Below, in pieces: positions 2,221 through 55,916 of a DNA stretch of 64,000 nt. Within the stretch, counting starts at the first letter, position 1. Each line of letters opens with the position of its first letter. The notes beneath the pieces were generated by a model that searched no databases, was not told the origin of the DNA, and worked only from the letters and a program-made list of their open reading frames with translations. The DNA comes from Chiloscyllium plagiosum (Eukaryota), in contig NC_057719.1 in assembly GCF_004010195.1 (NCBI RefSeq), positions 21,536,810 through 21,600,809 of the forward strand. Reading direction: 5' to 3'. The translations under genes and the position numbers were made by a program.

Positions 2221-2244
2221 TTACTATGAACCTGATCACATCTG

Positions 2245-2437
2245 CAGATGCTGGAGATCAAAGTTGAAACTTTATTGCTGGAACAGCACAGCAGGTCAGG
2301 CAGCATCCAGGGAACAGGAGATTCGACGTTTCGGGCACAGGCCATTCCTGAAGAAGGGCCTGTGCCCGAAACGTCGAATCTCCTGTTCCCTGGATGCTGC
2401 CTGACCTGCTGTGCTGTTCCAGCAATAAAGTTTCAAC
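2245..2437. mobile_element. Penelope-like hairpin mini-element (inverted pLTR), family A
   Basis: Near-perfect palindrome; 14-bp TSD CCTGATCACATCTG at 2231-2244 and 2438-2451; homologous to the ends of GIY-YIG-bearing copies elsewhere in the window. Confidence 0.9.
2344..2379 (+). ncRNA. Minimal type I hammerhead ribozyme (PLE family A)
   Basis: ATTC-CTGAAGA-A-GGGC(CTGT)GCCC-GAAACGTC-GAAT: stem I ATTC/GAAT, conserved core, stem II, palindromic ACGT helix III, GUC cleavage triplet. Confidence 0.8.
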
Positions 2438-9220: not shown

Positions 9221-11301
9221 AATTGTTTAAAGACATTTACGATACAAGAGGTGATGTGTAAGTTATTGCTGCTCTAGTCATTTTTGTGTATTTGAAGTTA
9301 ATTGTTAAAAATTATAATGCTGATTATAGCACTTGAATATGAATGCATTTAATAAATATAGGAAGTGCAGTGCTTGCGTTAATGCATTTTAAGTTGGGCA
9401 TGCAACCACTAATGGGGGTTCAATTATTCTGCTCACTTGCTATAACAACTTCTTTGCCATGTTTAATCAACAGTATATTTGCAATTTTCTTGCATGTACA
9501 CAAAGTCTTCATACACCAACATCCTTCACTATCATATTCCTCTATTTTTGATGGTTTTGATTTTGGAGGGAGGATATGTCATTCCTTTCAATGGGCAATA
9601 AACCTGCCTATCAATTGAAAGGTGCCAGACTCCAGATGTGTCCAAGAACCATTGCTCCTTTCAAGGAAAAGAACCATAAAAGAGAATAACATTGTCGAGG
9701 AATAAATGGAGGCTCAGATAGTGGGTTTAGAATGCTGCTAACCTGTTTGAGATTATGCTTGTCTGTCTTTTTAATGGCCCAGCATTACCAACAATGATCT
9801 CCTTTTAGAAGTCTTCTCTCTTTCCCACAGCCTCAGGACTGCAAAGCCTTCTATCTCAATCTGTATTTCCTTCTTTCTCTCACTTATAAGCTTTTAACTC
9901 CAACCACATTCTTGACTTATTTCACATTAACTGTGAAGAATGAGAGAATTCAGATGTGTCCAATGAAATTAAGTAAATAATTACTATTAAATACATAGTC
10001 TATCTCCTGAGTAACTATTCAACTGAGTTCATAATTACTTCATGCATCATAGATTACACCTCTCCAAGACAATTGGAGCCCCCAGACCCTAATATGCACT
10101 CAAATCTTGCCAGCAGGCACGATACACTCCTTTCCCTGCTCAGGACATGATCTGCCTCTAACCTCTTCCCATCCCCTACACCCGAGTCCCATTCCCCTGC
10201 TGTTCAATCAAACACCACCATCCCTCACTCACCATGTGAAACCTCCTACAAGGGTTCCACAACTGCCCTCCCCTGACCTCCCTGGTCAGACCTCATATCT
10301 CCCACCCACCTCGATCTACCTTAAATATTCCATCACTTACCTGCTCCCCTTGCCACCTTGCACCCTGGTACCCAACACACCTGGCAACCTGTCCTCAATG
10401 CCCTACTTCCTATCCATGATGTCCAACCACTTGTTATCCTACCTACTTGACATTCTACCATCCTTACCCACTTTGCATCCTCACCCATAAGGCACCATAC
10501 TTAGCTGGCATCCTACCTCTCCCCATCCACCTGGTATCCTATGTACTTCAAACTTTGACAGAAGCTGTCAAAGTGATTGATTTCAACCTTTGAAATACAG
10601 GATATAGCAGCTGACTGCTGTGAGAAAGGGGAGCATGCTTTGTCTTCCCCTGAGAGCTCTGCACTGTGAGAGAACTTGCAGAATGAAACTGCAGCTCTCC
10701 ATTCCTGCAGGAGTTCTGATCAGAATCTCCAGTCAGAAATGTGGAGCTCTCTCCTTTGATTTAAATATGAGTTAGAACAGCAATTAGAGTGGATTTCAAC
10801 TCCTTGGGATATCTGACCCAGATTGTTTTGTTTGGTATAACTACTAGTATATTAACATGTTAGGCACTGTAGTTTCTACCATTAAAAATAATCTAGTCCA
10901 CCTAATGGAATTATACCAGAGCTCTGGTATAATGGGTTATAAGGAGCTTCGAAGATTAGTATATGATTCACATGTGTACCACAGATAATTCAACAAAGTC
11001 CACAGCTATATGTAGATAACAGGAAAATAAGGAGAAATTTCTTTTTTAAGAGAATATATGGAATGTGTAATTCACTACCACAACAACTGGCTATATGCAT
11101 GAGAGCAAAGGGAATATGTTCCAGGACTGAAATAAATGAAACATAGCACCAGTGTATAATAGATGGATTGAATGGCATGTTTCTATACTGTATTTTCAAC
11201 TTAAGGTTGCACTCCATTCATACAGTAGATGCAAGTTCTTTTTGTCTGATATATCTACCTCAGAGAGGTTAGTTTCCCATCATTTACTCTCAAATATTAG
11301 C

Positions 11302-12576
11302 GTTGAAACTTTATTGCTGGAACAGCACAGCAGGTCAGGCAGCATCCAGGGAACAGGAGATTTGACGTTTCGGGCACAGGCCCTTCTTCAGGAATGAGCA
11401 GAGAGTGTTCAGCAGGAGAAGATAAAAGGTAGGGAGGAGGGACTTGGAGGAGGGGCGTTGGAAATGTGATAGGTGGAAAGAGGTCAAGGTGAGGGTGATA
11501 GGTCAGAGTAGGATGGAGGCGGAGAGGTCAAGAAGAAGAGACTCCTCCCTCCCCTTCCTAGACCTTTCTGTTTCTATCTCAGGTGACCGAATCAACACGG
11601 ACATCTACTACAAACCNNNNNNNNNNNNNNNNNNNNNNNNNNNNNNNNNNNNNNNNNNNNNNNNNNNNNNNNNNNNNNNNNNNNNNNNNNNNNNNNNNNN
11701 NNNNNNNNNNNNNNNNNNNNNNNNNNNNNNNNNNNNNNNNNNNNNNNNNNNNNNNNNNNNNNNNNNNNNNNNNNNNNNNNNNNNNNNNNNNNNNNNNNNN
11801 NNNNNNNNNNNNNNNNNNNNNNNNNNNNNNNNNNNNNNNNNNNNNNNNNNNNNNNNNNNNNNNNNNNNNNNNNNNNNNNNNNNNNNNNNNNNNNNNNNNN
11901 NNNNNNNNNNNNNNNNNNNNNNNNNNNNNNNNNNNNNNNNNNNNNNNNNNNNNNNNNNNNNNNNNNNNNNNNNNNNNNNNNNNNNNNNNNNNNNNNNNNN
12001 NNNNNNNNNNNNNNNNNNNNNNNNNNNNNNNNNNNNNNNNNNNNNNNNNNNNNNNNNNNNNNNNNNNNNNNNNNNNNNNNNNNNNNNNNNNNNNNNNNNN
12101 NNNNNNNNNNNNNNNNNNNNNNNNNNNNNNNNNNNNNNNNNNNNNNNNNNNNNNNNNNNNNNNNNNNNNNNNNNNNNNNNNNNNNNNNNNNNNNNNNNNN
12201 NNNNNNNNNNNNNNNNNNNNNNNNNNNNNNNNNNNNNNNNNNNNNNNNNNNNNNNNNNNNNNNNNNNNNNNNNNNNNNNNNNNNNNNNNNNNNNNNNNNN
12301 NNNNNNNNNNNNNNNNNNNNNNNNNNNNNNNNNNNNNNNNNNNNNNNNNNNNNNNNNNNNNNNNNNNNNNNNNNNNNNNNNNNNNNNNNNNNNNNNNNNN
12401 NNNNNNNNNNNNNNNNNNNNNNNNNNNNNNNNNNNNNNNNNNNNNCCTTTTCCTGAAGAAGGGCCTGTGCCCGAAACGTCGAATCTCCTGTTCCCTGGAT
12501 GCTGCCTGACCTGCTGTGCTGTTCCAGCAATAAAGTTTCAACTTTGATCTCCAGCATCTGCAGACCTCACTTTTTC
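11302..12576. mobile_element. Inverted Penelope-like element (family A) with RT fragment and assembly gap
   Basis: 15-bp TSD CTCTCAAATATTAGC (11287-11301, 12577-12591); inverted ends; RT motif LPFLDLSVSISGDRINTDIYYKP ~11548-11616; hammerheads at 11360-11395 (-) and 12449-12484 (+). Confidence 0.9.
11617..12445. other. Assembly gap (829 N)
   Basis: N run. Confidence 1.
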
Positions 12577-13234
12577 CTCTCAAATATTAGCCCCTTGCCC
12601 AGTTAGAAATACAGTTTTCCCAGTTTACAGTTGACAGGCAAAGGACGTGATATTCTCAGCATTACACTGATGTACTATATAGTCTTCACACATGTTAAAT
12701 CAAATATCAACTCAGTATTATCAGAGAATCAACATGTTCGCAACTTGTGCAAAAATAATGAATTGGTATAGGTTGATGTATTGATCAAAACTAGGATTGA
12801 AAGGAAGACATGCTATGTGATATGTATACAAATGGCAACACCTAACTTAATAACACACAAGAGATACTATTCCCCATGTCCTGATATTGCTCATGACTAG
12901 AATGAAGTACAAAAAAATGTCATCACATTAAGGATGTAATAAGGAAAGCTTAATCACTCTCACGCTTTGTTTAGTCTTTCCCCTCTTTCTTTCTAGAATG
13001 CATTTTGAGCAGGATCACAAGACAACTTAAAATAGTTCATCGAAACACAAGTGCACCTTATTGCTTTTTGCTTTTTGCAACATTAGCTGCCAGTTCTCAT
13101 GAGAAACACTAGAGGGAACTCCTGCTACTGTACTATACCATGATAACACTGCCACTGCTGGTGAGCTCAAGATGCTCCTTAAAAGTTGTCACTGGACAGC
13201 CAGTCTCATATTTAAGCATTAATTTTCTCCAAAA

Positions 13235-13545
13235 TAGATTAGATTACTTACAGTGTGGAAACAGGCCCTTCGGCCCAACAAGTCCACACCGACCCGCCGA
13301 AGCGCAACCCACCCATACCCCTACATTTACCCCTTACCTAACACTACGGGCAATTTAGCGTGGCCAATTCACCTGACCTGCACATCTTTGGACTGTGGGA
13401 GGAAACCGGAGCACCTGGAGGAAACCCACGCAGACACGGGGAGAACGTGCAAACTCCACACAGTTAGTCGCCTGAGGCGGGAATTGAACCCGGATCTCTG
13501 GCGCTGCGAGGCAGCAGTGCTAACCACTGTGCCACCGTGCTACCC
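13235..13545 (-). mobile_element. HE1-like V-SINE (young, CpGs retained)
   Basis: Full head, V-domain and tail. Confidence 0.92.
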
Positions 13546-13957
13546 ACAAAAAATAAATGAGGTAAAAATGACTGACCTAAAGGATGATGGAGATTTGGAC
13601 AAGTCATGATTTTCCTACTTGCATTCCCAGTCACAGATATTGCTGTAAAGTGACGGAAGTGTGGTTTCAGTGGTAGATATCAGCCAGTCATTATAGTCAT
13701 ATATTAAAGTATGTTATATTATTTCTGCTACTGTTTGACCAATCCCGACATTAAGCAAGCCCGTTTAATACAAAGGATGAAAATGATTGAATGATAGCAC
13801 AGGCAGGAACGACATTTACAATTAAGTCCTCAGTAACTTACACTTACAGGTCTGTCTACAAATCTGATAAGTGAAGCTTTCTGCTTTATTCATAGCACAT
13901 TCTGTCAGACTTCTCCCTACTCAAACAGGGAAAGAAATAGAGTTATAGACAGAGAAA

Positions 13958-14415
13958 GAGAAAAAGACTTGCATTTTATACAACTTTCACAATCATTAGA
14001 CATTTAAGAGTGCTTCAAAGGCATTGAAGTACATTAGGAAGTGTAGTTTTTGTTGCAGGATGAATGATAGACATTTTGCGCTTAACGAATTTTCATGAAC
14101 TACTATCTGATAATAACCAGATAATCAACTTTTTGGGATGTTGTTTGGAAAATATTGGGCAAGGATAACTCACAAACTTTTCTTCAAAACAGTGCTCTAG
14201 ATGTTTTACATTCCTTTAACCTGGCACCATGGAATGGAGGTTTTGGAAGCATAATTGAGATGGCTTAACATCTCATCTGGAAGGCAGTCCATATGCCAGT
14301 GCAACACTGCCCTCAATACGACATCGGATTGTTAACTGAATTTTTTGTTCTTCAATGCAAGAGTGGCACTGAGCTTAGAGACTAGAAGATAAGAGTGTTA
14401 CCAAATGAGCCAACC
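13958..14415 (-). mobile_element. Deu-domain SINE (SacSINE1/AmnSINE1-related), old
   Basis: Minus strand CAGATGAGATGTTAAGCC...TTTTGAAGAA...GATTATCTGGTTATTATC...AATGCAAGTCTTT. Confidence 0.7.
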
Positions 14416-14981
14416 ATTGACACTGATAATGGTAGAGAGACATAAAAGAATCAAGACAATAGGGAACACATCAGAATTTATTTTCCAATTAGGTGAGAAA
14501 ACAAGAGACTATCATGGAACAAATAGATGCTTTTAAAGTTTGTTTGCCAGTTTTCTTCAAAGTGTTCATTTAATGTATTTATAAACCATGATGTTTTATT
14601 TTTAAGTTATCTTATTCAATACATTTCAAACGCAAATGTTTGTTTTAACTAAAATTTAATCAGCACTTTTCCAGTAAGATGGAGCAGTGTTGCACACAAT
14701 TCAATAGCCCAGAATAATGCCTGCTGTTGCTATGGAAAGGGGATCTTGCCATGGTATTTTGCAGACTCACAACATGTGCCATCACACTTGCTGTGAGTCA
14801 AATTTTGTTGTGTTAAATTAACTGCAATGGTACATTAAGTAAACACAGACATTAGATGATGTTAGAAAATTTTGCTGTTTTAAAGTGCACTTTAGTGAAA
14901 TGACCATATGTGTGCTAAATTGAATGATATTGTGAACAAAAATCAATTGGAAATTACAAGTCTGAAATCGTATTGTGATAT

Positions 14982-15277
14982 GGGCAGCACAGTGGTTAGC
15001 ACTGCTGCCTCACAGCGCCAGAGACCTGGGTTCAATTCCCGCCTCAGGCAACTGTCTGTGTGGAGTTTGCACATTCTCCCCGTATCTGCGTGGGTTTCCT
15101 CTGGGTGTTCTGGTTTCCTCCCACAGTCCAAAAATGTGCAGGTTAGGTGAATTGGCCATGCTAAATAGCCCGCAGTGTTAGGTGAAGGGGTAAATATAGG
15201 GACATGGGTGGGTTTCTCGTCGGTGTGGACTTGTTGGGCCGAAGGGCCTGTTTCCACACTGTAAGTAATCTAATCTA
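14982..15277 (+). mobile_element. HE1-like V-SINE
   Basis: GTGGTTAGCACTGCTGCCTCACAGCGCCAGAGACCTGGGTTCAATTCCC head, V-domain, tail. Confidence 0.92.
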
Positions 15278-17242
15278 TCAGCAGGTTAATACTTCTCATA
15301 CTTACATGATATCTTCACAGTTGCTATTGCTTTTTTAAAAGAAAGGCTAAAAGGACTCTGCTAAAAAGGTGACTGAAGAAATGTTCTGATAACTATTATA
15401 GTAGATATATAACTATTAATATCGACAATGATAACTTGTACGTTCATGTTCTCATACTCTCATTCATAGTTTAGGATGAATAAAAAGCAGCAGTTAACTC
15501 TAAACTATGATTTGTGACCATGATAATTACCCAAGTAGATCATATCTTTGCTCTTGCATGTATTGTTTTTCAAATCACATGCTCACTGAGTTAAAATATG
15601 CGCAAAAATTAGGTCCCTGCTCTGTAAAGCTTGAAAATGGCACATATATACTTCTCACCGTGGATACTGAATGATTTATAGAGACAGGAAGCATATTCTT
15701 CTGTCCATTTGTGCAAAGTGCAGGCAAACGATTTTGCAAGTCATAAATAATGCTGAGGTGAAGCAACCATTGAGCAGACCAGGCCCTAATCTTTCAAGAA
15801 GCAACGTGAGTGGAAGGGCAGGATCTTTCACAGCAGGTGCTAATTGAAGTGATCCATATCCACCTGAGACGGGAACAGCAAAACGTGTAGCAAACAAACA
15901 GTGCTCTTAGCCTGCACTTTTGACTCCAGCATGAATCAAGCATTGATTTCCCTCAGCTGTAACCAGCCAAATCACTCAATGATGAAGGCGACAAACAATG
16001 CTGGTATCTTTTTTGAGTTAATTGGCTTCAGAAAGTCAGAGAGAAATGGCTTTATTTTTGACATGGGCTTTCAACCTGTTGAGAACGCTGAGCAGTGTAC
16101 CGGAGGTGGGGGATGTGTGCTAATAAATAGTTTACTGCTGGTCAAGGTTAATGATGGAAAATCGACCACTCTCCTGCTTTGAACACATAGAATGTCCATC
16201 AGCACACTCATAGGTCAGGTGCAGCCTAGTTCATTGAAGACAGAGTTTAGACATCTCAATTCGGATGTGAACTTTAAAATGCCTGAAATAGAAACTGCAC
16301 TGCAGAGAAAAGTGATTAGCTACATGGGAGATCTCATTGGTGCTGCTCTGAGGTTAATTGGAAATTGGACATTTACTCAAAGATTGAGACCTCTTGACTA
16401 AAAAGATGTAGTATGCTTTAAATTCTGAATCAAGACTGCGGATTTCTTTTGATGATGATCTCTGTTTCGAGATCACAGAGCATATTTATCACAGTTGCGA
16501 TGTCATATTTATAAGTAAGTACGTAAATAGGGAAAGAAGATCAGCAATTCTTTTGTGTTTCTCTTCTTGGAGAGGGTGGGGAATCAGGAAATTTACAATT
16601 AGCTGTCAATCAAGTTGAGAATAGCAATTAAATTGACTTCAGTTTGCGTTAAACCTACAACCTGTGCAGCTAACAAGAAAGACAGCCTGTGGACTTGAAG
16701 AAGCATGCCCTATCTCACACAGCGCTATGTTAGAATAACACATTGTGATGTTAATAATATGTATGCCATTGTCAGAATTGTTATCATACCCCATGAGCCT
16801 GTATATGAAAGGCTGATTGTACACAATATTTCAAGGCTATTTCATTTACTTCGGCTACAAATGTTCTGCGAGAGTCTACTGGAAATAACTGAACCATAGC
16901 ATTGTGTGTCAGCAGCCAGTAACAGGCTCAAGCCACGTCCTGAATGTGCTCAAATTCTGAGCACGTGTTGGCATGGATGGCATCTGGGCAGGATGAAAGT
17001 GGGCTTTTACATGGGATTTGCTGAAGCCTGAGAGGAAGGGCAAAGGCTAAAATTATCTTTATCACCCCAAAGCAGCTTCCCCTTCTGTATCCTTACCCAC
17101 ATGCGCACTATCTAGCTGATATGATGCTCACATTGTCTCCAGCCACATTATTTTAAAGCACTCAGTAGCTTGAGTTGGGAATAAGGATTGCCCTAGATTA
17201 TAGTTTGCACACAAGATCCCAGTTTCTGAGAACTTCCAGGAG

Positions 17243-20424: not shown

Positions 20425-20628
20425 AAAATGAAAGAACTGCGGATACTGGAAATCTGAAACAGAAACAGAAATTTCTGGAAAAGTTTAGCAGGTCTGGCAG
20501 CATCTTTGGAGAGACATCAGAGTTAACATTTTGAGTAAGGGTCAATGAACCTGAAATGTTAACTCTAATTTCTCTCCACAGATGCTGCCAGATCTGCTGA
20601 GATTTTCCAGCAACTTCTGTTTTTGTTT
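20425..20628. mobile_element. Old PLE-type hairpin mini-element
   Basis: Imperfect palindrome centred ~20535; shares AGCAGGTCTGGCAGCATC and the tail motif with other pLTRs. Confidence 0.65.
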
Positions 20629-20744
20629 TATATAAATTCTTGGGGTAAAAACCATTAAGTCCCAATGATTGTTCCATAATAAGTTCCATTATTTTCTTTA
20701 TTACAATTTTTGCTAATTTTAAATAAATTCAGGACATGACTTGC

Positions 20745-22808
20745 AGTGATCAATAAAAGTAAGTGTACCAAATGCTTTCTTCATTACCCTGACTACCTGT
20801 GACTACACCTTCAACGTGAATCTGTACCCCAAGGTCTCTTTGTTCGGCAACATTCCCTACGATCTTGCCATTAACTGTATAAGCGCTGTCCTGATTTGCC
20901 TCCTCAAAATGCAAGACCTCACATTTATTGAAATTAAAGTCCATTTGCCACCCCATCTGATTTAGGTCTCATCATATTCTGAGATAAACTTCTTGACTGT
21001 CCACTACACCACCAATTGTGGTATCATCTGCAAACTTACCAACCATTCCTCCTTTCTTCACATCCAAATCATTTACATAAATGATAAAAAGCAGTGGACA
21101 TAGCACCAATCCTTGTGGCATTCTGCTGATCACCGGCCTCCAGTCCAAAAAGTAAACCTCCATCACGCCCTTTGTGTGCCAAGTGACATTTGTGGAAGTG
21201 CAGGTGAAACATTGATGGATGTGGCAGGCTCCTGTGGGGCCTTGGATGGAGGTGTGGATGCAGGTTTTGCAATTCCTATGGTGGCAGAGGAAGGTACCAG
21301 GACGGGAGGATGGATTGTTAGGGGCGTGGACCTGACCAGGTAGTCACAGAGGGAGCAGTCTTTGCGGAAAATGGATAGGGGTGGGGAGGAAAATATATCC
21401 CTGATGGTGGGGTCTGTTTGTCGCGGAAATGTTGGCGGACGATGCGTTTATGCAGAGGTTGGGGTAGATGGTGAGGACCAGGGGGATTCTGTCCTTCAAA
21501 GTTTCATCTGTACTTCCACAAATGTCACTAATTGCATCCCTTGCTACCGATGTGGTTTCCTTTACATTGGAGAGACTGGACGACTTCTCACAGAGCACTT
21601 CAGAGAACATCTCCATGAGACCTGCACCAATCAACCCCACCGCCTCGTGGTTGAACATTTCAACTCCCCCTCCCACTCTGCTGAGGACATGCAGGTCCTG
21701 GGCTTCCTCCATCGCCACTCTCTCACCATCCGATGCCTGGAGGAAGAACGCCTCACCTTCCGCCTCTGAACACTTCAAACGCAGGGCATCAATACTCCAA
21801 CAGTTTCCTCATTTCCCCTCCCCCCACCTCACCCCAGTTCTAAACTTCCAGCTCAGCACCATCCTTATGACCTATCCCACTTGTCAATCTTCCTTTCCAC
21901 CTATCGGCTCCACCTATCACCTTTACCCCTTCCTCCATCCACCTATTGCACTCCCAGCTACCTTCTCCCCAGCCCCATTTATCTCTCCATTTATCTCTCA
22001 ACCCCCGAGGCTTCCAACCTCATTCCTGATGAAGGGCTACTGCCTGAAACATTGATTTTCTTGCTCCTTGGATGCTGCCTGATCTGCTGTGCATTTCAAG
22101 CACCACTCTAATCTTGACTCTAATCTCCAGCATGCAATCTTCACTTTCACCCTGGATTCTATGTATTCTAACCTTGCTAACAAGTCTCCAATGCAGAACC
22201 TTGCCAAATGCCTTGAAGAAGTCCATATAGTTAGGATATCATGTTGCAGCTGTACCAGACATTGGTTAGGCCACGTTTGGAATATCACATTCAATTCTGG
22301 TCTCCATCCCACAGTTGTTGTTAAAGTTGAAAATGTTCAGAAAATATTTGCAAGGATGTTGCCAGTATGGAGGGTTTGATCTATAGGGAGAGGCTGGGGT
22401 TATTTTCCCTGTAGCGTCGGAGGCTGGGGAGTGACATTTAGAGGTTTATAAAATGATGAGGGGCATGAATAAGGTGAATAGCCAAACTCTCTTTCCCAAC
22501 ATAGGGGAGTCCAAAACTAGAGAGCATAGGTTTAAGGTGAGAGGGGAAAGATATAAAAGGGATTTTAGGGGCACTTTTTTCATTGTGTGTGTGTGTGTGA
22601 GAGATGACCTGCCAGAGGAAGTGGTGGCGGCTGGTACAATTACAACATTTAAAAGCATCTGGATGGGTATATGAATAAGGAGGAGGACTTAGAAGGATAT
22701 GGCCCAATTGCTGGCAAATAGGTGCAGATTAATTTAGAATATCTGATTGACATGGACAAGTTGGACCGAAGGGTCTGTTTCAGTGTTGAACATCTCTGTG
22801 ACTCTGTG
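20745..22808. mobile_element. CR1 LINE with inverted 5' part (minus 20745-21168 and 22150-22228; plus 22229-22808)
   Basis: Minus: MDFFKAFGKV, QGLVLCPLLFIIYVND, KFADDT, FNFNKCEVLHF; plus: IMLQLYQTLVRPRLEY through the 3' tail. Confidence 0.85.
21170..22149. mobile_element. Penelope-like element (Neptune-type GIY-YIG), partly inverted, inserted in the CR1
   Basis: CTSTNVTNCIPCYRCGFLYIGETGRLLTEHFREH...HFNSPSH (GIY-YIG with Cys/His motif); family A pLTR with decayed hammerhead ~22022-22057. Confidence 0.88.
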
Positions 22809-24065: not shown

Positions 24066-25054
24066 TGTAGAGTGTGTGGCGCTGGAAAAGCACAGCTGGT
24101 CAGGCAGCATTCAAAGAGCAGGAAAGTCGACGTTTATAGGCATAAGCCCTTCATCAGGAATCAGGCTTGTGGGCCAAGGGGCCNNNNNNNNNNNNNNNNN
24201 NNNNNNNNNNNNNNNNNNNNNNNNNNNNNNNNNNNNNNNNNNNNGGAAAGCAATAGGTAGAGGAGGGGGGGGGGGGGGTGAGAGCGGTAGGTTGGAGCAG
24301 ATAGGTGGGAAATAAGATGGACAGGTAGGACCGTTCAAAAGGGCGGTGCTGAGTTGGAAGGTTGGAACTGGGATAAGATGGGGGGAGGGGAAATGAGGAA
24401 CCTAGCAAAATCCACATTGAACCCGTATGGTTGGAGGGTTCCAACGTGGAAGATGAGGCATTCTTCCTCCAGGCGTTGAGTGGTTAAGATTTGGCTATGG
24501 AGGAGGCCCAGGACCTGCATGTCCTTGGCAGAGTGGGAGGGGGAGTGAAAGTGCTTAGCTACGGGGTGGTGGGGTTGGTTAAAGTGTTCAGCCACAGGAC
24601 TGAAACCCTAACTACCCATTGCCTAGAGGAAGGATGCCTCATCTCTCCACCTTGGGAACCTCTAACCACATGGGATCAATGTGGATTTCACCAGTTTCCC
24701 CATTTCCCCTCCCCCCACCTTATTCCCAACCCCAACCTTCCAATTTGGCACCACCCTCTCGAACGGTTCTACCTGTCCATCCTTCTTCCCAACTATCTGC
24801 TCCAACCTCCCCTCTGACTTATCACTTTCACCCCCACTTTATCTATCTATCACATTCCTAGCTACCTTCGCCCCAGCCCGACCCCTCTCCCATTTATGTC
24901 TCAGCCCCCTTGGCCCACAAGCCTCATTCCTGATGAAGGGCTCATGCCCAAAGCATCGACTCTCCTGCACCTCAGATGGTGCCTGACTGGCTGTGCTTTT
25001 CCACCACCACACTCTTCGACTCTGATCTCCAGTATCTGCCGTCCTCACCTTCTC
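24066..25054. mobile_element. Inverted Penelope-like element (family A)
   Basis: 16-bp TSD CATGTGTACATACAAT (24050-24065, 25055-25070); ~450-bp inverted arms; GIY-YIG C-terminus HFHSPSHSAKDMQVLG; 61-N gap 24184-24244. Confidence 0.9.
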
Positions 25055-26289: not shown

Positions 26290-26845
26290 ATTTTTCTCTC
26301 CACAAGGCAAGATTTTAGGGTGACTAGATAGAGATCTTTGAGATTATGTAGAGTTTGAAGGGGTAGACACAGGGAAGATACTTCCACTTGTGGGAAAGGT
26401 CAAAGCCAGATGCATAGATATAAAGTAATCATTAACAAATTCATTAGGAATTCAAGAGAAAGCTGTTTATCCAGAGAGTTAAAAATCACACAACACCAGG
26501 TTATAGTCCAACAGGTTTAATTGGAAGCACACTAGCTTTCGGACCGACGCTCCAATTAAACCTGTTGGACTATAACCTGGTGTTGTGTGATTTTTAACTT
26601 TGTACACCCCAGTCCAACACCGGCATCACCAAATCATATCCAGAGAGTGTTTACTTGTGATCTTCATTATCACACGGAATAGTTGAGTAAGGGACATTGA
26701 TACATTTAAGGGGAAGCTGAATACACATAAGAGAGAAAAGAAGAGCAGATTAGTTCTTGAAGACATCTCATCAGAGGCCTAAAAACCAGCATGCAGAGTT
26801 AGACGGAATGAACTGTCTGTGCACTGCACATTCTGTGTGACATTA
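26290..26845 (+). mobile_element. Old CR1 3' fragment interrupted by a PLE hairpin
   Basis: Decayed ORF2 C-terminus and 3' UTR. Confidence 0.65.
26480..26636. mobile_element. PLE hairpin mini-element, family B
   Basis: Palindrome plus one-sided tail; 12-bp TSD TATCCAGAGAGT (26468-26479, 26637-26648). Confidence 0.85.
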
Positions 26846-28113: not shown

Positions 28114-28247
28114 TGTTAAAAATCACTCAACACCAGGTTACAGTCCGACAGGTTTATTTGGAAGTTCCAAATAAACCTGTTGGATTATAGCCTGGTGTGT
28201 TGTGAGTTTTAACTTTGGACACCCCAGTCCAACACCAGCATCTCCAT
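28114..28247. mobile_element. PLE hairpin mini-element, family B
   Basis: Palindrome with apex ~28164; decayed TSD CCCAAAAACGA/CCCATAAATGA. Confidence 0.8.
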
Positions 28248-28342
28248 CCCATAAATGAAGCTAGTCTTGATAATACAGCAAATGTGTAATGTTCAGTAGT
28301 TTAAAAAGGCAATTGCGAAAGAGCAGAAGTGTGTGAGATTGT

Positions 28343-29913: not shown

Positions 29914-30139
29914 GAGCAAATTCCTGCAGATGCTGGAATCTGTACAGAAAATAAAAATGCTGGAAATCACAGCGGGTCAGGCAGCATCTGTGGAGAGAGA
30001 GTAAGCTAACGTTTTGAGTCTGGATGACTCTTCGTCAGAGTTCTGATGAAGAATCATCTAGATTCAAAACGTTAGCTTGCTCTCTCTCCCCCAGATGCTG
30101 CCTGACCCGCTGTGATTTCCAGCATTGTATGTTTTCAGT
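29914..30139. mobile_element. PLE hairpin mini-element, family D, with two decayed back-to-back hammerheads
   Basis: Palindrome with apex ~30040; GTTCTGATGAAGAATCATCTAGATTCAAAACGTTAGC (30040-30076) and its antisense twin. Confidence 0.8.
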
Positions 30140-38029: not shown

Positions 38030-38690
38030 GCGTCACAGATGGGCAGGGTGGTTAAGAAGGCGTTTAGCATACTTGCCTTCATTGCTCAGTCCCTTGAGTG
38101 CAGGAGTTAGGAAGTCATGTTGAGGTTGTTCAGGACATCGGTGAAGCCTCTTCTTAAGTATTGTGTGCAGTTCTGGTCACCCTTTTATTGGAATGATATT
38201 TTTAAGCCAGAGAGGGTCCAGAAGAGATTTACCAGGATATTGCCGGGAATGGAGGGTTTGAGTTGTAGGGAGAGGCTGGCCAGGCTGGGACTTGCATCAC
38301 TGGTGAGTAGGAGATTGAGAGGTGACCTTATAGAGCTTTAAAAAAAATCACAAAGGGTATAGAAAAGGTGAATGGCAGGTGTCTTTTCCTTAGGGTGGGG
38401 GACTTCAAAACTAGGAGGCATATTTTAAGGTGAGAGGAGAAAGATTTAAAAATGACTTGAGGGGTAACATTTTTACACAGACAATGGTTCGTGTGTGGAA
38501 TGTATTTCCAGAGGAAAGGGTGGTTTTGTGTACAATTACAGCATTTAAAAAATATTTAGATAAGCACATAAATAAGACATATGGGCCAAGTAAGTGGGAC
38601 TGGTTTACTTTGGGATTATGGTCGACATGGACTTCTTGGACTGAAGGGTCTGTTCAGGTGCTGCATGAATCTACGATTCTATGACACTAC
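38030..38690 (+). mobile_element. CR1-like LINE 3' fragment
   Basis: LKYCVQFWSPFY, RLRGDLIEL, FTQTMVRVWN. Confidence 0.9.
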
Positions 38691-39823
38691 GTTGATCATC
38701 CTCCTCCATTGTGAAAACCTGGCCCAAAATCTCTAAGTATTTTCTACAGAGTAATTTTCATAATTCACTCTGATGTGTTTTTAATGTTGAATTATTTTGG
38801 TTACTGACGTTGAAAATAACCAACATATTTATTGGAATAGTATCGGAAGATGACTCTTAGTTGAAATTTACATAACTGGGGGAAGTACAGACATGAAACA
38901 TCTCAAATGAATCTTTTAATACAGATTGAATGCCAATATTGATTCCTTACTCATACTGAAAAATTTGAGAAGGGTGGTCTGGCTGTCAGATGATACATTT
39001 CATGGAAGCAAGTATCTATTTGTTTAATCGTTAGATCTTATACTGCCACAGAGTTTTTGTTGGGTTATTGTCAATCTCCCTATGTAACACTGGCATAAAA
39101 GCATGAAATGAAAACAAAAATGTTTAAATGCTTAACAGGTTAGGATGTATCTGTGGAGAGAGATGTCTGTGAACTTTCATCAGAAAAGGAAGACATTAGA
39201 AATGTAATAGATTTTAAGGACTGGAAAGGAAGAGGTGGGAAAACTGATAAAAGGAAAGGTCTATGATAAGGCGAGAGACAGGAGAAATTAAATAACATTA
39301 GAGGGTTGATGATAAAAGGCAAAAGATAGTGGTAAAGAATCATGTAATGGAAATAAAGATGTGGTTAGAGGACAATGATTAGCCAGCTCTACCCAAAAGT
39401 AAAGAAAGAGAAAAGGCAGCGTAAAAAAAAGGCTACTTTTTATCAGATACTCTATTGGCCTTGTCGTATCCACTAGCAGCAATGACCAATCCCATATTGT
39501 AAGAAAGAGCAGCACTCCACCTGGCCTTAAAACAGTAGATTTTAAAAGTATTGGTGATACTTTGAGGTCTCCTCAACCTGCAGCCTCCGAAGTTGCCAAC
39601 TCTCTTGAAAGCTTTGCAAACTGTTAGGCCTCTGCATGGATGGTGGTCCCACAGCAGCATTCTAATGGTCCATAAAATAATGTCTCGATTCCTGATGCCC
39701 GCTCGCTTGGGCTCAGTTCTGATGATGTGATTACTTACCTGCTGAAATAAATCTGTGTTGTACGACTGAAATTTCTGTCTTTTGCCATTCTCAGACCCTA
39801 AATTTCTTTCATTCCACTTCCTA

Positions 39824-41025
39824 AGTTGGTGGTGGAGTGGACAATGAAGAAGATTACCTCAGAGTACAATGGGATCAGATGGACTGATGAGCTGAAGAAT
39901 GGTAATTGGAGTTTAATCTTTATAAATGTGAGGTGCTGCAGTTTGGAAGGACAAATCAGGGCAGGACTTATATACTAGGAGAACGTGAGGACTGCAGATG
40001 CTGGAGATCAGAGTCGAGAGTGTGATGCTGAAAAAGCACAGCAGGTCAGGCAGCATCCGAGGAGCAGGAGAATTAAATTTCAGGTATAAGCCCTTCATCA
40101 GGAATGAGGCTTGAGGGCTGGGGACACTGAGAGATAAATGGGAGGGGGATGGGGTTGGGGGAATGTAGCTGAGAATGCTGTATAGATGAAGGTGAGGAAA
40201 AGGTGATAGGTCAGAGAGGGGATTGGAGTGAATAGGTGGAAAAGTTGATGGACAGGTCAGGAGGGCAGTGCCGAGTTGGAGGCTTGGGACTGGGATAGTG
40301 TCGGGGAAGGGGAAATAAGGAAACTGTTGAAATCCACATTTATCCCTTGTGGTTACAGAGTCCCAAGGCAGAGTACCTTTTCCAGGCATCGGCTTGGCGG
40401 TGGAGGAGGCCCAGCACCTGCAAGTCATTGACAGAGTGGGAGGGGGAGTTGAAATGTTCAGCCATGGGGTGGTGGGGTTGGTGGGTGTGGGTGTTCCACA
40501 AATGTTCTCTGCAACGATCCACAAGAAGGCATCCTGTCTCCCTGCTGCAGAGGAGACCACATCGGGTGCAATGGATACAGTAGTTGGCATTGGTAGAGGT
40601 ACAGGTAAATTTCTGTTGGATGTGGAAGGATCCTTTGGGGCCTTGAACGGAGGTGAAGGGCATAGTGTGGGCACAGGTTTTATACACTTAAGGTCCTGAG
40701 GAGTGATGCCGAACAAAGGGACCTTGGAGTGCAGGTTCATAGTTTCTTGCAAATGGAGTCACAGATAGGTGGGATAGTGAAGAAGGCATTTAGTATGCTT
40801 GCCTTTCTTGGTCAGTGCATTGAGTATAGGAGTTGAGAGGTCAAGTTGCGACTGTGCAGGACATTGGTTAGACCACTTTTGGAATATACTTTCTTGCTAT
40901 AGGAAAGGGTTCAGAAAATATCTAAAAGGGTGTTGCCAGGGTTAGAGGTTTTGAGCTGTAGGGAAAGGCTGAACAGGGGCTATTTTTCCTGGAGCATCGG
41001 AGGCTGAGGGCTGACCTTATAAAAT
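39824..41025 (+). mobile_element. CR1 RT fragment split by a PLE; 3' tail resumes at 42422-42495
   Basis: KCEVLQFG..QRDLGVQVH..RRLRADL motifs. Confidence 0.8.
39978..40680 (-). mobile_element. Penelope-like element 3' part (Neptune-type GIY-YIG)
   Basis: FTCTSTNANYCIHCTRCGLLCSRETG...EHFNSPSH; family A pLTR; imperfect TSD TTATATACT/TTATACACT. Confidence 0.88.
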
Positions 41026-42531
41026 CCAATGCCGTGACTTTCCTTTCCAAACTGCAGCACCTCACATTTATCTAGATTAAACTCCATCTGCCACTCTTCA
41101 GTTCATTGGCCTATCTGATCAAGGTCTCATTGTATTCTGAGGTAGCCTTTTCATTGTCCACTTTACCACCAATTTTAGTTCCATAGGGAGTGGAATGAAA
41201 GAAATTTAAGGTCTGAGAATGGAAAAAAAATCAGAAATTTGAGTCGCATTGCCCAGATTTATTTCAGAAGGTAAGTAATCACATCATCAGGACTGAGTTC
41301 ATGTGAGCAGGCATCAGGAATCAAGACATTATTTTATGAATAGAATGCTGCTGTGGGACCACCATCCACGCAGAGGCCTGGCAGTTTGCAAAGCTTCCAA
41401 GAGGGATGGCAACTTTGGAGGCTGCAGGTAGAGGAAGCGGGTACCACCATGTTGTGTAGGCCTCAAAATATCACTGATACTTCTAAAATCTACTGTGTTA
41501 GGGCCAGTTGGAGTGCTGCTCTTTCTTACAATATTGGGTTGGTCATTGCTGCTAATGGATACTACAAGGCCAATTGAGCATCTGATAAAATATGGCCTTG
41601 ATTTTCTATGTTGCTTTTTCTCTTTCCTTACTTCTGGGTAATGCTGGCTAATATTCCTGCTATGCACACCTTCTCTAAACACATCTTTTGTTCCTTTACA
41701 TGATGCATTACCACTATCTTTTGCCTTTTATCACCAGCCCTTTTGTGTTATTTAATTTCTCCTGTCTCCCACCTTATCATCGACCTTTTTTTTTGTTAGT
41801 TTTCTCATCTCTTCCTTTCCAGTCCTTAAAAGCTATTACAATTCTAACGTCTCTTTTTTTCTGATGAAAGTTCACAGACATCTCTCTCCACAGGTACATC
41901 CTAACCTGTTGGGCATTTCAACATTTTTGTTTTCATTTCATGCTTTTATGCCAGTGTTACATAGGGAGATTGACAATAACCCAACAAAAACTCTGTGGTA
42001 GTATAAGATCTAATGATTGAACAAATAGATACTTGCTTCCATGAAATGTACCATCCGACAGCCAGACCACCCTTCTCAAATTTTTCAGTATGAGTAAGGA
42101 ATCAATATTGACATTCAATCTGTAATAAAAGGATCATTTGAGATGTTTCAGATCTGTATTTCTCCCAATTATGTAAATTTCAACTAAGAGTCATTGTCCT
42201 ATACTATTGCGATAAAAACGTTGGCTGTTTTCAATGTCAGTAACCAAAATAATTCAACATTAAATACACATCAGATGAATTATGACAATTTCCCTGCAGA
42301 AAATTATTGGTCACTTCGGGCCAGATTTTCAGTATGGAGGAGGACACATTATTGTAGAGTCATACAGCACTGAAACAGACCCTTCGATCCAACCAGTCCA
42401 TGTTGACCATAATCCCAAGCTTCAATAGGCTGAGCATGGATGAGATGGACTGAAGGATCTGCTTCTGTGCTGTACATCTCTTATGACTCTATAACTCCAC
42501 CTTTAAAGACATGAATTGTTCATCAGCCAGG

Positions 42532-48010: not shown

Positions 48011-48234
48011 GTGTACAAAATTAAAAATCGTACAATACCAGGTTATAATCTGACTGGTTTATTTGGAAGCACTAGCTTTCAGAACGCTGCTCCTTCATCA
48101 GGTTGACAACCACCTGATGAAGGAGCAGCACTCTGAAAGCTAGTGCTTCCAAATAAACCTGTTGGACTATAACCTGATATTGTGTGATTTTTAACTTTGT
48201 ACACCCCAGTCCAACACCGGCATCTCCAAGTCAT
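48011..48234. mobile_element. PLE hairpin mini-element, family B
   Basis: Palindrome with apex ~48106 plus one-sided tail. Confidence 0.85.
48111..48145 (+). ncRNA. Minimal hammerhead ribozyme (family B), antisense twin at 48070-48104
   Basis: CAC-CTGATGA-AGGAGCAGCACTCT-GAAAGCTA-GTG: stem I CAC/GTG, palindromic AGCT helix III, CUA triplet; stem II partly decayed. Confidence 0.7.
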
Positions 48235-50237
48235 GACTACCATCAAGAAATAGAGTGGGCAGTCAATACAGGACCAAGAGATTGTACTTAGCTGCACACA
48301 GTATATGAAACAAGGCAAATGAGCTGGTAGCACAGATTGAAAGCGGCGGGTATGATGTTATGGGCATTGCAGAGATACGGCTGTAAGAGGATCAGGGCTG
48401 GGAACTAAATGTTCAAAGATATGCATCCTATTGAAAATACAGGCAGAAGGATGGTGGGGGATATCTTGTTAGTAAGAAATGAAACTAAATTGATAGCACA
48501 AAGTGATATTGAGTCAGAATGCATAGAATCTGTGTTGGGAAATTTGAGGAACTGAAAGGTATAGAAAAAACCCTGGTGGGACTTACATACCGGCTTCCCA
48601 ATCAGTAGTCAGGAAGTGGGACAGAAGAGAAATCAGGAAATAGAAAGGATGTGCAAGAAAGCCTCTATTATTATAAATCATGTATGACTTCAATATGCAA
48701 CTGGACTGGAGCCTGGATGAAGCCTTCGGACTGCATAGATTTTTCAGTTTGGGTTGAGTCCATTGATGAGCTAAGGTGCATAGTGGATTGAATGGGTAAG
48801 TACTTATTTTTCTTATATCTCTGTGAATAGATTTTGATTGAAGTTGAATGTTCAGTATTTCTGTAGGCCCCATACTGTCTATGCTGGGTAGCATGAGGTC
48901 TACTGAAACTATCTGTTAGGTTTGACTGTTTGTTCATCTGAAAGTGGAGGCATAAATTGGAATTCCAGGCTGAACAATGGTGCCAGACAGAAAGCATTCT
49001 GGTTCTGTGTATTTGCTGCAGCCTCAGCCAGGGGTTTTGTCCAGTAGTTTAGATATTGGAAAAGTCCAGGGTTATGTCCAGTATTTTAGATGATGGAGAT
49101 TTTTGCTCAATCCTATAATTTTGAATTTAAAGCTAGAAAGAGGATTTAATGTTACAATATTATCAGACAGCAAACAAAAGTTGATGGAACTAAGCTTACA
49201 ACTGACAGAAATTCATCTACAAGTTCACAATGCATTACACTTAACATTAAAGGTACGCTATTAGCAACTCTCCAACATAGGAGAGACCAATATAAGCAAC
49301 TCTTGTGGCATATAATAATGTCCCTACCCTTGGACTTGTAAGGCATAAGTTCAAGATGTACCAGCTCCAGAGGTGTGTAAGAACATTCCTGAGCAGGATG
49401 ATTAGAAAAATAATTAAATTAAGAAATATGAAATGTACTTCCCAACAAGAGTGTCTTAACTTGAACTGAAATATGCGTATTGATCTCAATATCATGTAAA
49501 TGTGAAAGGGATTGAGCAAGGAACTTTTGTACAACTTTTGTACAGAAGCTTTTGTACAACTGGTAAAACTCAAATTGGAACCAAAGCCCAAATGCAGAAT
49601 GGATGGAAAGTTGTGTCTATTTTCAGCTGCTGCCAAAACTCAAGAGATTTCAGATTCCAACTGTCAACAAACTTCAAGAAGAAAGGCAACCAAGGACGCA
49701 ACAACTGAACAGTGTATTCCACTTGAGATAATTGAAGCACTTGCAACTAAATTGAGTCAAATTGCAACAATTAACACTGCAACAGATTGCAGTGAACAAT
49801 TCGTTATGGTAAAACCAAGTCAGGTACTAGATGATAAGTAGGGTCAGGTAGGGTCAAGTTCAAATGGAATATCTTCGAAAGAAGAGTCCACAAAAACCAT
49901 AATGGATATCACATTAAGTGAGAAGGAATCTTTAGGGAACACTGTTAGGAACTGAATAAATTGATTGCATCAACTGCCAAGGGTGAATGGGAAAGTCCAA
50001 ACTGATCAATAATTTCAAGCAAAATGCCAATTTACTTTATCACAGATCTACAGGCAGATTGAGCTAAGATTAATGTTTAAGTCCCTTAGGTCAAACTACC
50101 ACTGTTCATCACTTTCTCTGATGAGACAGCAGTCCTATGATCCTCTGTGAATGTGGCAACCTTAACTTTGCATAAAGCCAAATGTTCTACATGTATTAGG
50201 AAAGATCTGAAATGATTAAGAATAGGAAGAACCATGC

Positions 50238-52700: not shown

Positions 52701-55254
52701 ACAACAAATATGAAATCATAGTGGCAGTTTAACAACAATTATACACTCTAGGTACAGCCAATGCTATTGTTATATTCAGAAGAGTGCACCAACAAAATTT
52801 GTGCCAGATACAATTTGCTGTCCAGCTTTTCTGAAGCACTGGGCACTGGGTATGAATGTGCAGGAAATCCGGTTCCAAAGGGCAAACAGAACTGTAGAAC
52901 AAAATACAAGAGACCAACAAAATGGTACAACACCACAAAATTACCAGCAAAGCAAGTGTTAAGAAAGCAAGTGCATCAATGAGGTTCAATGTCCAACCAA
53001 GCGAAGGCAAATTTCAGAAGGTGACCAAACTTTCCGTATGGTCACTTTCACAGACCATGTCATGTAAGGTGATAGAGCTTTCATACACTCTGAAAGATAG
53101 GGCAACATATATTAGACAGGGAGAAAGAGCTGGTGAAGAGCTTATGCTCAAAACATCAATTCTCCAGCTCCTCAGATGCTGCCTGATTGACTGTGCTTTT
53201 CCAGCACCACACTCTCAACACATATTAGATACTCAAATCAACTCAGGAGCTATTGATTATATATTATCACATTACATCATTGAAGGTATATTTCAGCAAA
53301 TGTCACTCCATGGTACAGTCTATGAGGGACTGTTTCACAATATACAATGGATTGCCAATTCTTTGCATGGGTGGAATCACAATGCAGTACCAAGCTTATC
53401 TTGGCTTTCCAATCTTTTCTACCTGGCAAAAAGCAATTATACAGCTGTGGCTGGACTATCAGTATGCACATTATGTCACAATTCATTGAGATTTAAACCA
53501 CAATCAACATAATATGGATGTGCTGGTATTGAACTGGGGTGGGCAAAGTTAAAAATCACAGAACACCAGGTTATAGTGCAACAGGTTTATTTGGAAATAC
53601 TATCTTTAGGAGCACTGCTCCTACATCAGGTAGCTGTGGAGCAGGATCATAAGACACAGAATTTATAGCAAAAGATCTGTGTCATGCCATAAGACACAGA
53701 ATTTATAGCAAAAGATCAGTGTCAAATCACAATGTGATTGAAAGAAGTTCTGGGATTTACATATTAATGATCCGAAACCTGCAACCCATTCTAAAAGATG
53801 AGAGACTTAACAGCAATCTAGGTCTGTTCAATATACTGTATCAGTTGCATGCGTGATGCTGTAATCTTGTCTTTTGATCCTGCTGCACAGCTACCTGATG
53901 AAAGAGCAGTGTTTCGAAAGCTAGTACTTCCATATAAACCTGTTGGAGTATAATGGTGTTATGTGATTTTTAATAATCAATATAGCAGAACAGGCCACAT
54001 GTGGTATAATTAAGTCCATCAACAATCGACAAGAATATGACTTCAAAGTGAGATATAAGTAAGGTACCAGCTGATTATGTTTGATCAAATTAACAAAATA
54101 AAATAATACCAAGATATCATTCTTAATGTGCACATCAATGCTCTTCACTGTGAAATTGAGACATTTTCAAGGTTGATCTGTAAAACTTAACTGAGTCATT
54201 GAGAACAATTGGCAACTGTTGAAAATAAGCAATGGAACAGTTGTAAAAGAGTAGTCTCCAGTTCTGTCCTGACAGTTTCAGCAAATTACCTAAAAATGTA
54301 ATTTTAGCCAGACAGAGACAAACTTGGGAGATCACTGTTTGGTCATTTTCAAGAGCAAACAATTCTGAACATGGAAAAGAAATACTAAGTTAATCCATGG
54401 GTACTGAACACAGGAGACACTAGCATATGGATTTGTGTTTTGGCCAGGGATGAATCAGGGTTTGTACTGTCTCCTGAATTAATGTGCACCATGTGAAATA
54501 TTTGCCTCAGTAGTGGAGGCACAATGGAGCCTCTCTATCCACATGATTTTCAATCCACTCTTTTGAGGAAATTAGCAACAGACCTTTTCACAGTATCTGG
54601 GGAAGATTGCATCTCTATGATGGATTACTTCTTTAAATTTTGCATTCTTTGATTATTTAACAGTACAACAAACATAGGCATCCAGTGTAAATCACACCAA
54701 GACATTTACGATTATGGTAATTCCTTTTTTGAAGGTTTGAAAACTAGCTCACACCAATGCATGACACACCAATCATGCATGAAGTGTGTGGAAGGAAAAT
54801 CCAGTGATGATTGTGCAGTGATAACAACTAGCACCAAGAGAACATTATCAAACAAATGCAACAGAGAACAATGGGTATTTCTCCACACGTGTACATGTTT
54901 ACTAGATCAGGGCAATTTGTCAAACTTACAAGCAATAAGTTAAAGCTTGAAATATTAATCCGATAAACTCTGTTTTAGCTATTTGTACGACTATTGAGTT
55001 GACAGCATGTACAATCATATGACCACATCAATATTTGTTTGGGATAAGTTTTTACCTATATCAAAGAGGGATGTTGTATTTGGTCTCACAGTCAGAATTT
55101 ATGTATTTCAGAATACATTTAATAGTTATGTTCATGTATCATCAGTGCATTGTATTGTGTAACCTGAAGGTCCAAAGATCTCATACTCCATCCTAACTTA
55201 GAACCTTTGAAGCATCATACTTTAAGGAGCATACTTCTCTGTTGTAATGCAACA
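52700..55254 (+). mobile_element. Decayed Gypsy element (gag knuckle, protease, integrase, PPT and probable LTR)
   Basis: CPAF..GHW..MCR (~52818-52865); INSGAIDYIL..LFYL..AVAGLSVC (53237-53468); LAYGFVFWPGMNQ (~54420); EPLYPHDF..KLATDLF..DYFFKF (~54527-54640); AAAGAGGGA then TGTTG at 55072 and CAACA at 55254. Confidence 0.75.
53512..53974. mobile_element. Inverted PLE, family B
   Basis: Inverted arms; TSD AATCAA(C/T)ATA (53502-53511, 53975-53984); hammerhead remnant CTGATGAAAGAGCAGTGTTTCGAAAGCTAGT ~53895-53925; internal 30-bp duplication. Confidence 0.8.
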
Positions 55255-55782
55255 GCTGAAAATTAGCCCAGTCACTAAAGTAACTGAGCAATGTACTATT
55301 TACGTATCACAAATCATTACAATAAATATATTGCATTCATGCCCAGATTCTAATGTTATGGGAGATAACATAAACATTATCACTTCACCCTGTTGGAGGC
55401 AAAATTGTTCCAATAAACCATTCATTAAGTTTTATTCCTTTGTTTCTGGTCTCAACTGCCTTCCTCACATAACCTTTTCTGACTATGCACTCAAAAACCA
55501 AAGCTTTGTTCCTTTACTAAACTCCCTTTACATTGCATCTGCTTCTTCTTTAAGATGCTCTTTGAACCTCACTTCTTTAGCCAGGTTTTTGGCCACCCAT
55601 TTAGTGCTTCCTCTTTAGCTCAGTGTTCATTTTTTCAGCTCTAGAGCATCTTGTGCTTTATTTCTATATTGAAGTACTCTATAAATTCAGGCTAGTATTA
55701 CAGTCCTAGTAGTGATAATGAGTATGGTGCTGGTAGTGATAACAATAGTGCTGCTATTGATAGTAGTTGAGTTTAAGAGATT

Positions 55783-55916
55783 GAAGAGTGTGGTGTTGGA
55801 AAAGCACAGCTAGTCAGGCAGCATCCAAGGAGCTGGAGAATTTTTGTTTCCAGCATATGCCCTCCATCCTATGCTCTTTGATTCTGATCTCCAGCATCTG
55901 CAGTCCTCACATTCTC
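55783..55916. mobile_element. Collapsed PLE hairpin (family A)
   Basis: 15-bp decayed TSD TGAGTTTAAGAGATT/TGAATTTAAGCGATT. Confidence 0.75.

Follow-up and report, generated by a model that had tools for sequence, protein, structure and literature searches.

A 193-bp hairpin in a shark genome, very probably two head-to-head PLE pLTR ends left by one recent insertion

Positions 2245–2437 of the window, the whole 64-kb stretch of DNA that was analysed, hold a near-perfect hairpin of 193 bp that carries a hammerhead motif and lies between the two copies of a target-site duplication. Is such a hairpin a miniature element that is copied as a unit, or is it what a single insertion of a longer retroelement left behind? 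We conclude that the 193 bp very probably represent two head-to-head ends (pseudo-LTRs, pLTRs) of a Penelope-like retrotransposon (PLE), inserted in one recent event by the RT and endonuclease of the family, and likely immobile as a unit. The locus is composed as follows:

2231–2244, left target-site duplication of 14 bp, the last 4 bases of which are shared with the element tail
2245–2262, minus strand, one-sided tail, equal to the first 18 nt of the 34-nt tail of a sister copy (12543–12576)
2263–2343, minus strand, tailed pLTR arm, 5'-truncated within hammerhead helix II and without the CUGANGA box
2344–2437, plus strand, inverted tail-less pLTR arm, its outer end corresponding to base 11302 of the sister copy
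2344–2379, plus strand, complete minimal type I hammerhead motif in the layout of Cervera and De la Pena (2014; PMC4209133), predicted cut after 2375
2438–2451, right target-site duplication; the alignment of a contig from a related organism (organism B) ends at 2438

A first-pass annotation made from the sequence alone had described a near-perfect palindrome at these coordinates with a perfect 14-bp duplication and intact CpGs, and this description holds: the arms 2263–2343 and 2357–2437 are complementary at 81 of 81 positions, the duplication flanking the 193 bp is exact (2231–2244 and 2438–2451), and all six CpGs are intact. Exact repeats of at least 14 bp at the same spacing occurred at 4 of 6219 sampled window positions, all four of which represent this element. 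In a comparison with 200 shuffles, the hairpin folds at −176.2 kcal/mol with z = −23.8. On the tail side the inverted repeat stops short of the element's end, as 18 nt (2245–2262) found only on the left lie outside the stem, and the 13 nt at the apex (2344–2356) belong to the right arm only; each arm holds bases absent from the other. The arms overlap by 1 nt, base 2343 fitting both of them; they measure 99 and 94 nt, and no coding sequence upstream of the pLTR is left. The tail is matched by the last four bases of the left duplication as well, which leaves a doubt of 4 nt about the left boundary and gives ranges of 10–14 bp for the duplication and 18–22 nt for the tail. The own sense of the element is the minus strand, an orientation that had been missed, and the hammerhead motif is located on the inverted arm.

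The window contains two copies of this precise subfamily, its remaining hairpins being older relatives or members of other families. The second copy is the longer one:

11287–12591, plus strand, sister insertion of the same subfamily with 15-bp duplications at 11287–11301 and 12577–12591
11302–11542, inverted arm of the sister
11540–11617, RT-thumb remnant, matching P0002 at 24 of 26 residues (E 3e-10)
11617–12445, N gap
12446–12576, pLTR plus tail, the tail comprising the 34 nt 12543–12576

The likeness to the ends of the 11302–12576 element that had been pointed out earlier is close. The tailed part (2241–2343, minus strand) is identical to 12462–12564 at 103 of 103 positions, and the inverted arm matches the reverse complement of 11302–11396 at 94 of 95, the sole difference being CpG decay in the sister. 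The 34-nt tail is present at one end of the sister, 18–22 nt of it are retained at 2245, and it is missing from both inverted arms. From these matching ends and the shared terminal base of the inverted arms we infer that both insertions have one layout, namely duplication, inverted tail-less arm, junction, sense arm, tail, and duplication. Just upstream of the core the two sister arms differ from each other (11392–11399 versus 12446–12452, the latter adjoining the N gap); the consensus of RNA reads with loose ends at 2344 (63 reads, agreement 0.42) ends like 12446–12452, and two upstream contexts may exist. At 12499–12576, 26 codons led by an ATG stay open across the pLTR end and the tail, and this frame may be an ORF start. 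PLE pLTRs are reported to hold the start of the ORF.

Judged by its sequence, the family probably belongs to the EN+ PLEs, which have an RT with C-terminal GIY-YIG, a membership read from the sister remnant and not from the 193 bp. P0001 and P0002, the proteins closest to the window, are named Chiloscyllium punctatum proteins by their source, in agreement with the shark host that had been proposed; both show GIY-YIG and RVT_1 matches below the Pfam curated cut-offs and a precomputed PF26215, and in the Atlas a fragment of an older relative has GIY-YIG clusters as its look-alikes, at 0.94. A Pfam search with three window fragments, a set that left out a fourth fragment with stop codons, returned no PLE domain and one weak unrelated row. 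A cysteine-rich stretch precedes the endonuclease in P0001 and P0002 and also in an older window copy at 40681, and a cysteine-rich RT-EN linker is a trait of Neptune (Arkhipova et al., 2013; PMC3846280). The family thus looks Neptune-like, as far as the linkers of relatives can tell, the subfamily's own linker falling inside the N gap.

The anatomy agrees with the published EN+ PLE insertion unit, which has an inverted 5'-truncated copy and a 30–40 bp tail at one end (PMC8557442; PMC3846280). Shared with this unit are the head-to-head pLTRs, the tail at one end, the 5' truncation, the variable-length duplication and a small palindrome at the inverted junction, whereas arms of 99 and 94 nt and a tail cut to 18–22 of 34 nt are unlike the usual case. 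All structural traits of the locus, that is, the inverted copy, the one-sided tail, the extra core nucleotide and the palindromic helix III, have been published. In a literature search at the level of titles and abstracts, with thin coverage of subscription journals, neither a twin-priming account of PLE inverted repeats nor a paper on a shark PLE hammerhead or subfamily was found.

With these features the 193 bp could also be taken for a non-autonomous family member that is copied as a unit, like a MITE or a retrozyme, and mobilised in trans by PLE protein. MITEs are class II non-autonomous elements with a short, fixed duplication set by a DNA transposase and with uniform copies. The first-pass annotation had called the hairpin MITE-like, and like a MITE it is short, non-coding, hairpin-forming and flanked by a duplication. 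This label does not fit, however: the repeat is non-terminal at the left (18-nt tail), the duplications of the element and its relatives vary between 12 and 16 bp, the origin is a retroelement, and no sign of uniform copies was seen: junctions vary from copy to copy, no second copy with the junction 2343/2344 occurs in the 64-kb window, and many different joints were seen in public contigs. The non-LTR retrozymes (bioRxiv 10.64898/2026.07.22.740005) are likewise non-coding and PLE-derived and contain a type I hammerhead, but they need a head-to-tail tandem with at least two complete motifs, and the present element is head-to-head with one. Replication as a family is in keeping with the perfect arms, the own duplication and the youth of the copy, and pLTRs suffice for mobilisation in trans (PMC3846280). 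Expression was viewed in one RNA run, of which about 2% was read. Here, 773 of the 778 placed reads fit partly and the flanks had no depth; the remaining 5 fall entirely within the stretch, so that they might cover the apex. Against these stand 170 reads listed as leaving at 2343/2344 (107 + 63), 107 of which enter the ordinary upstream element body. Moreover, junctions differ among all two-armed copies examined, the tailed strand lacks a complete hammerhead, and the motif of the other strand is predicted to be trapped (see below). We therefore consider copying as a unit quite improbable.

The other two-armed copies in the window show how variable the junctions are:

20436–20630, 26480–26636, 28115–28252, 29922–30139, 48011–48244 and 53515–53973, short head-to-head hairpins that belong to two other PLE families and all differ in their junction

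In eight short two-armed window copies the arm lengths vary independently. Relative to core position C3, the inner ends of the tailed and inverted arms lie at +9/−5, tail only/0, +82/+2 and +34/+20 in copies 1–4 and at +33/+31, −8/−2, −1/−4 and +20/+23 in copies 5–8, these being local-alignment ends that are uncertain by a few nucleotides in old copies. Four longer two-armed copies start at 11302, 24066, 53515 and 59468. The duplications of other window copies measure 15, 16, 12 and 14 bp, with an exact 12-bp duplication at the 26480–26636 hairpin. The copies 53113–53219 and 55779–55917 have tailed arms of only about 11 and 43 nt, inverted arms that reach the hammerhead core, imperfect duplications and independent arm lengths. 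In all eight short copies, which represent three families, the inverted arm ends within −5 to +31 nt of C3. Such clustering at the ribozyme is suggestive only, as the copies were found by pLTR similarity and are few, and an outside set shows a wide spread.

Several further rearrangements were observed in the window. Between the arms of an old hairpin (30008–30038, minus strand, and 30043–30073, plus strand), one pair of helix II has changed in a compensatory manner, G-C versus A-U, which hints at two templates or at quasi-palindrome repair. The insertion 59468–60426 is young and belongs to a different PLE family; its arms are 98% alike, its 14-bp duplication is exact, both arms bear the motif, and it carries a 25-nt inverted internal copy at 60041–60065. 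In an older PLE copy (21179–21901) an inversion lies within the coding region, with the linker on the minus and the endonuclease on the plus strand. Long inverted repeats also occur in other repeat types, at 38610–42418 (arms of about 1.4 kb, enclosing a PLE copy) and at 13234–15278 (arms of 300 bp).

Beyond the window, public contigs contained 157 joints, of which the best 15 all lie at different coordinates with 1–2 contigs per run; the sides of these joints are 21–27 letters long, below the 30-letter trust threshold. To have a control from outside the window, metagenome contigs were scanned for a generic motif, which yielded 118 loci from 10 of 64 parts scanned. PLE endonuclease homology was present in 21 of the 118, and the similarity of the outside loci to the window pLTR is confined to the 28-nt core. 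An upstream inverted copy accompanies 27 of 107 testable motif copies (23 loci), versus one tail-to-tail pair, at distances of 14–453 nt. An exact duplication of at least 9 bp is absent in 17 of the 23 two-armed loci. L075:284–548, L085:177–444 and L094:153–466 have the same anatomy as the shark element, with duplications of 14–16 bp and a one-sided gap of 45–50 nt. Eukaryotic retroelement DNA is apparently common in this metagenome collection (an estimated 820 stretches or so); a search of metagenome contigs with a pattern like that of the subfamily gave no stretch, and a comparison of the pLTR with phages gave no match. Taken together, the window, the public contigs and the outside set indicate that head-to-head hairpins are a general PLE product with variable junctions.

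The origin of PLE inverted repeats has been called unresolved (PMC8557442). The simplest route, in which the cDNA primed within the tail folds back on itself, is excluded by polarity: the bases found only at the apex (2344–2356) are sense on the strand that starts with the tail, and a fold-back would give them the opposite polarity. Since each arm has bases that the other lacks, two separate primings are favoured instead. The endonuclease would nick both target strands about 14 nt apart; one nick would prime a cDNA within the tail that stops in helix II, while the other would prime a second cDNA at the tail-less start site that reaches as far as the 5' edge of helix I. Microhomology of 1–5 nt would then join the ends of both cDNAs, and fill-in would complete the hairpin. 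Twin priming, a term taken from L1 biology, is in our view the moderately probable route, given the PLE origin. It fits the independent lengths of the arms and finds a counterpart in PAc, the Poseidon protein of Anolis carolinensis, which nicks and extends both strands, is a predicted dimer and has two RT start sites (Frangieh et al., 2024; PMC11167929). Nicking and extension of both strands would yield two cDNAs, as proposed here, and two start sites would match the tailed and tail-less ends; that the inverted arms of the 2245 and 11302 copies end on the same base is to be expected if two start sites bound the tail. There are also differences, as the shark family looks Neptune-like and the PAc main text is silent on inverted arms (PMC11167929). 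The target site (2231–2244/2438–2451) resembles the element tail, which would allow each primer end to pair with the template RNA, over 4 nt on one side and over 5 nt plus two G-U on the other. Primer ends can thus pair over 4–7 nt here, whereas PAc needs no homology (PMC11167929); neither does pairing seem to be required in the shark family, because the primer of the sister's inverted arm cannot pair.

Self-priming of a different kind, in which the 3' end of an antisense pLTR RNA or DNA folds back onto the same strand and is extended into the inverted arm, has to be weighed against twin priming. It was proposed for Penelope head-to-head junctions (Arkhipova et al., 2013; PMC3846280), the minus-strand apex of the 2245 copy folds into a small stem-loop with its closing pair at the junction, and the apex-only bases lie on the strand that such a model requires, a fit of polarity equal to that of twin priming. 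It leaves unexplained, however, why the inverted arm starts at one exact tail-less base in both copies of the subfamily and how 53113–53219 and 55779–55917, whose arms hardly overlap, came about, and extension of both strands from two start sites has been shown in vitro for another PLE (PMC11167929). We regard self-priming as possible, albeit rather unlikely.

Alternatively, the hairpin could be the residue of a longer inverted-repeat PLE insertion that lost its centre after insertion. Long two-armed copies do exist in the window (11302–12576, 24066–25054 and 59468–60426), and long palindromes are prone to deletion. Microhomology-mediated deletions have moreover been reported in Penelope copies (PMC3846280). 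But with arms that still agree at 81 of 81 positions little time has passed, the tail is shortened too, which is not expected from loss of the centre, and several short copies end at the hammerhead edge and not at random places, so that we deem a central deletion improbable.

The age of the insertion can be approached through public contigs, which were placed on positions 1900–2745 for 4 of 24 listed runs. Contig records with at least 99% identity number 3174 of 18,324 and 2791 of 17,236 for organism A (two runs), versus 106 of 12,287 in the related organism B. At 2428, within the end that is diagnostic for the subfamily, the summed depth is 209,601 and 198,590 in organism A and 67.9 in organism B; flank depth beside the element is about 7–12, and the summed contig depth is to be read as a contrast, not as copy number. 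A contig of organism B aligns from 2745 to exactly 2438 and then continues for 52 further letters. In the bin 2190–2218, the depth in organism B is 16.3, as compared to 16.24 expected if these leftover letters lie on the left flank and 4.44 otherwise. The stop at 2438 and this depth arithmetic lead us to infer an empty site in organism B. The claim of recent activity is thereby supported: a relative seems to have an empty site and almost lacks the diagnostic end of the subfamily, and the arms without differences (81 of 81) likewise indicate that little time has passed since insertion. In organism A, a left-flank contig (X2 record 1) aligns only as far as 2241, leaving 28 letters over, and the X2 bin 2190–2218 has 3.0 extra depth, possibly due to a second allele, that is, a polymorphic insertion, or to tool behaviour.

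The same data bear on whether the hairpin is a fold-back chimera made by the assembly. Inverted PLE structures trouble assemblers (PMC8557442), and none of the contigs placed spans the whole insert. Nevertheless, the exact target duplication together with asymmetric arms, the likely empty site in organism B, and an organism A contig from another study, which starts at 2414 within the element and crosses the right flank free of differences (its 24 element letters are below the 31-letter bridge rule), make an artefact hardly credible.

There remains the role of the hammerhead. The motif 2344–2379 was earlier described as a complete minimal hammerhead cut after 2375, and all boxes and helices are indeed present. 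Helix I has 4 bp (2344–2347/2376–2379), the core consists of CUGAAGA (2348–2354), a single extra A (2355) and GAA (2368–2370), helix II has 4 bp opened by G-C (2356–2359/2364–2367), and the helix III half is the palindromic ACGU (2371–2374), followed by C17 at 2375. The motif therefore has the min-HHR hallmarks, which are the CUGANGA, GAAA and NUH boxes, G10.1-C11.1, the extra nucleotide between 9 and 10.1, a palindromic helix III half (ACGU) and a short helix I (4 bp); the PLE pLTR origin and the minimal type I assignment made in the first pass are borne out by these and by the sister copy. It had further been suggested that CUGAAGA is a special core variant. The hammerhead consensus leaves position 7 free, and of 122 motif matches from unrelated public contigs, obtained with a pattern that admitted A or T only, 93 have A there, so this suggestion is abandoned. 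The metazoan min-HHR has the same core boxes, extra nucleotide and G10.1-C11.1, and the same 4-bp helix I and palindromic loopless helix III (Cervera and De la Pena, 2014; PMC4209133). In comparison, helix II here has 4 bp and only one arm contains a complete motif, whereas that paper describes dual motifs 100–700 bp apart on opposite strands; its main text names no shark.

A relaxed core scan of the window gave 7 matches, as compared with 0.27 on average over 30 Markov shuffles. Rfam had no match at the gathering score in the whole 64-kb window. Even at E ≤ 10, none of the nine Rfam rows over the element was a hammerhead; seven were microRNA precursors far below their cut-offs, and we reject this identity as generic hairpin matching. 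Since a MAFFT alignment across families mis-registered helix II, a pair table was used in its place, covering 13 window motifs from 4 families, anchored by eye and without a shuffle control. In this table, pair 2 of helix II is G-C, A-U or U-A, pair 3 is G-C, A-U or C-G, and pair 4 is C-G, U-A or G-C. Covariation of the stems, one of the checks set by the first pass, is thus seen as swapped helix II pairs across the four families, but helix II is invariant in the three copies of the young subfamily. Of the 13 motifs, 10 have a palindromic helix III; family B contributes a second palindrome, AGCU.

An intact-looking motif need not imply a working ribozyme. The minus strand of 2245–2437 has no complete hammerhead motif, the sole one being on the inverted arm, and the modelled penalty for the ribozyme fold is 42.6 kcal/mol in the hairpin RNA versus 1.0–6.5 kcal/mol in four non-hairpin contexts. 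In a hairpin transcript the hammerhead is accordingly predicted to be trapped in the 81-bp stem. The intact-looking ribozyme of the first pass is therefore unlikely to work in this copy, where it resides on the inverted arm and would be zipped into the hairpin. The motif appears to be a passenger of the pLTR, and any role would be played, if at all, as a dimer in ordinary family transcripts. Thermodynamic support for the dimer fold was sought by energy calculation and not found, nearest-neighbour energies being −13.1 kcal/mol for the dimer fold, −14.2 for two monomers and −18.3 for the best cofold, in agreement with the low activity reported for min-HHRs (PMC4209133). One poly(A) single-cell run showed no pile-up of read ends, although such a library need not show cuts. 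For PAc, cleavage was protein-assisted and was dispensable for insertion in vitro (PMC11167929). In contigs of runs X2 and X8 (depth 172 and 137), a return from 2377 to 2344, across two intervening letters, was observed. Read literally, it would be a head-to-tail 36-nt hammerhead repeat elsewhere in the genome, the arrangement needed by a dimeric ribozyme, but it may be a repeat artefact.

The locus 2245–2437 is in itself unremarkable, as PLE stubs of this published architecture are very numerous, and the 193-bp hairpin is likely a dead-end product of one recent insertion and not a self-copying mini-element. Its value lies in being a clean young example that excludes the fold-back of a tail-primed cDNA. 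Annotators should be warned that PLE hairpins of this type are easily misfiled as MITEs or microRNA precursors. A subfamily that is young and very abundant, with unmutated junctions in the thousands, would make twin priming and antisense self-priming testable against each other by counting alone. A more far-reaching scenario, which we hold to be doubtful, is that a dimeric RT-endonuclease primes two cDNAs on two pLTR RNAs, with the ribozyme region setting their ends. A hammerhead dimer, formed by the palindromic helix III and a swapped helix I, may hold the two pLTR RNAs together, and the cDNA ends might be set there by the RNA 5' end, the cut site or a stall. If this were true, a genome-wide junction map would be a direct test of the mechanism, and the weakly cleaving minimal hammerhead would gain a role in PLE transposition.
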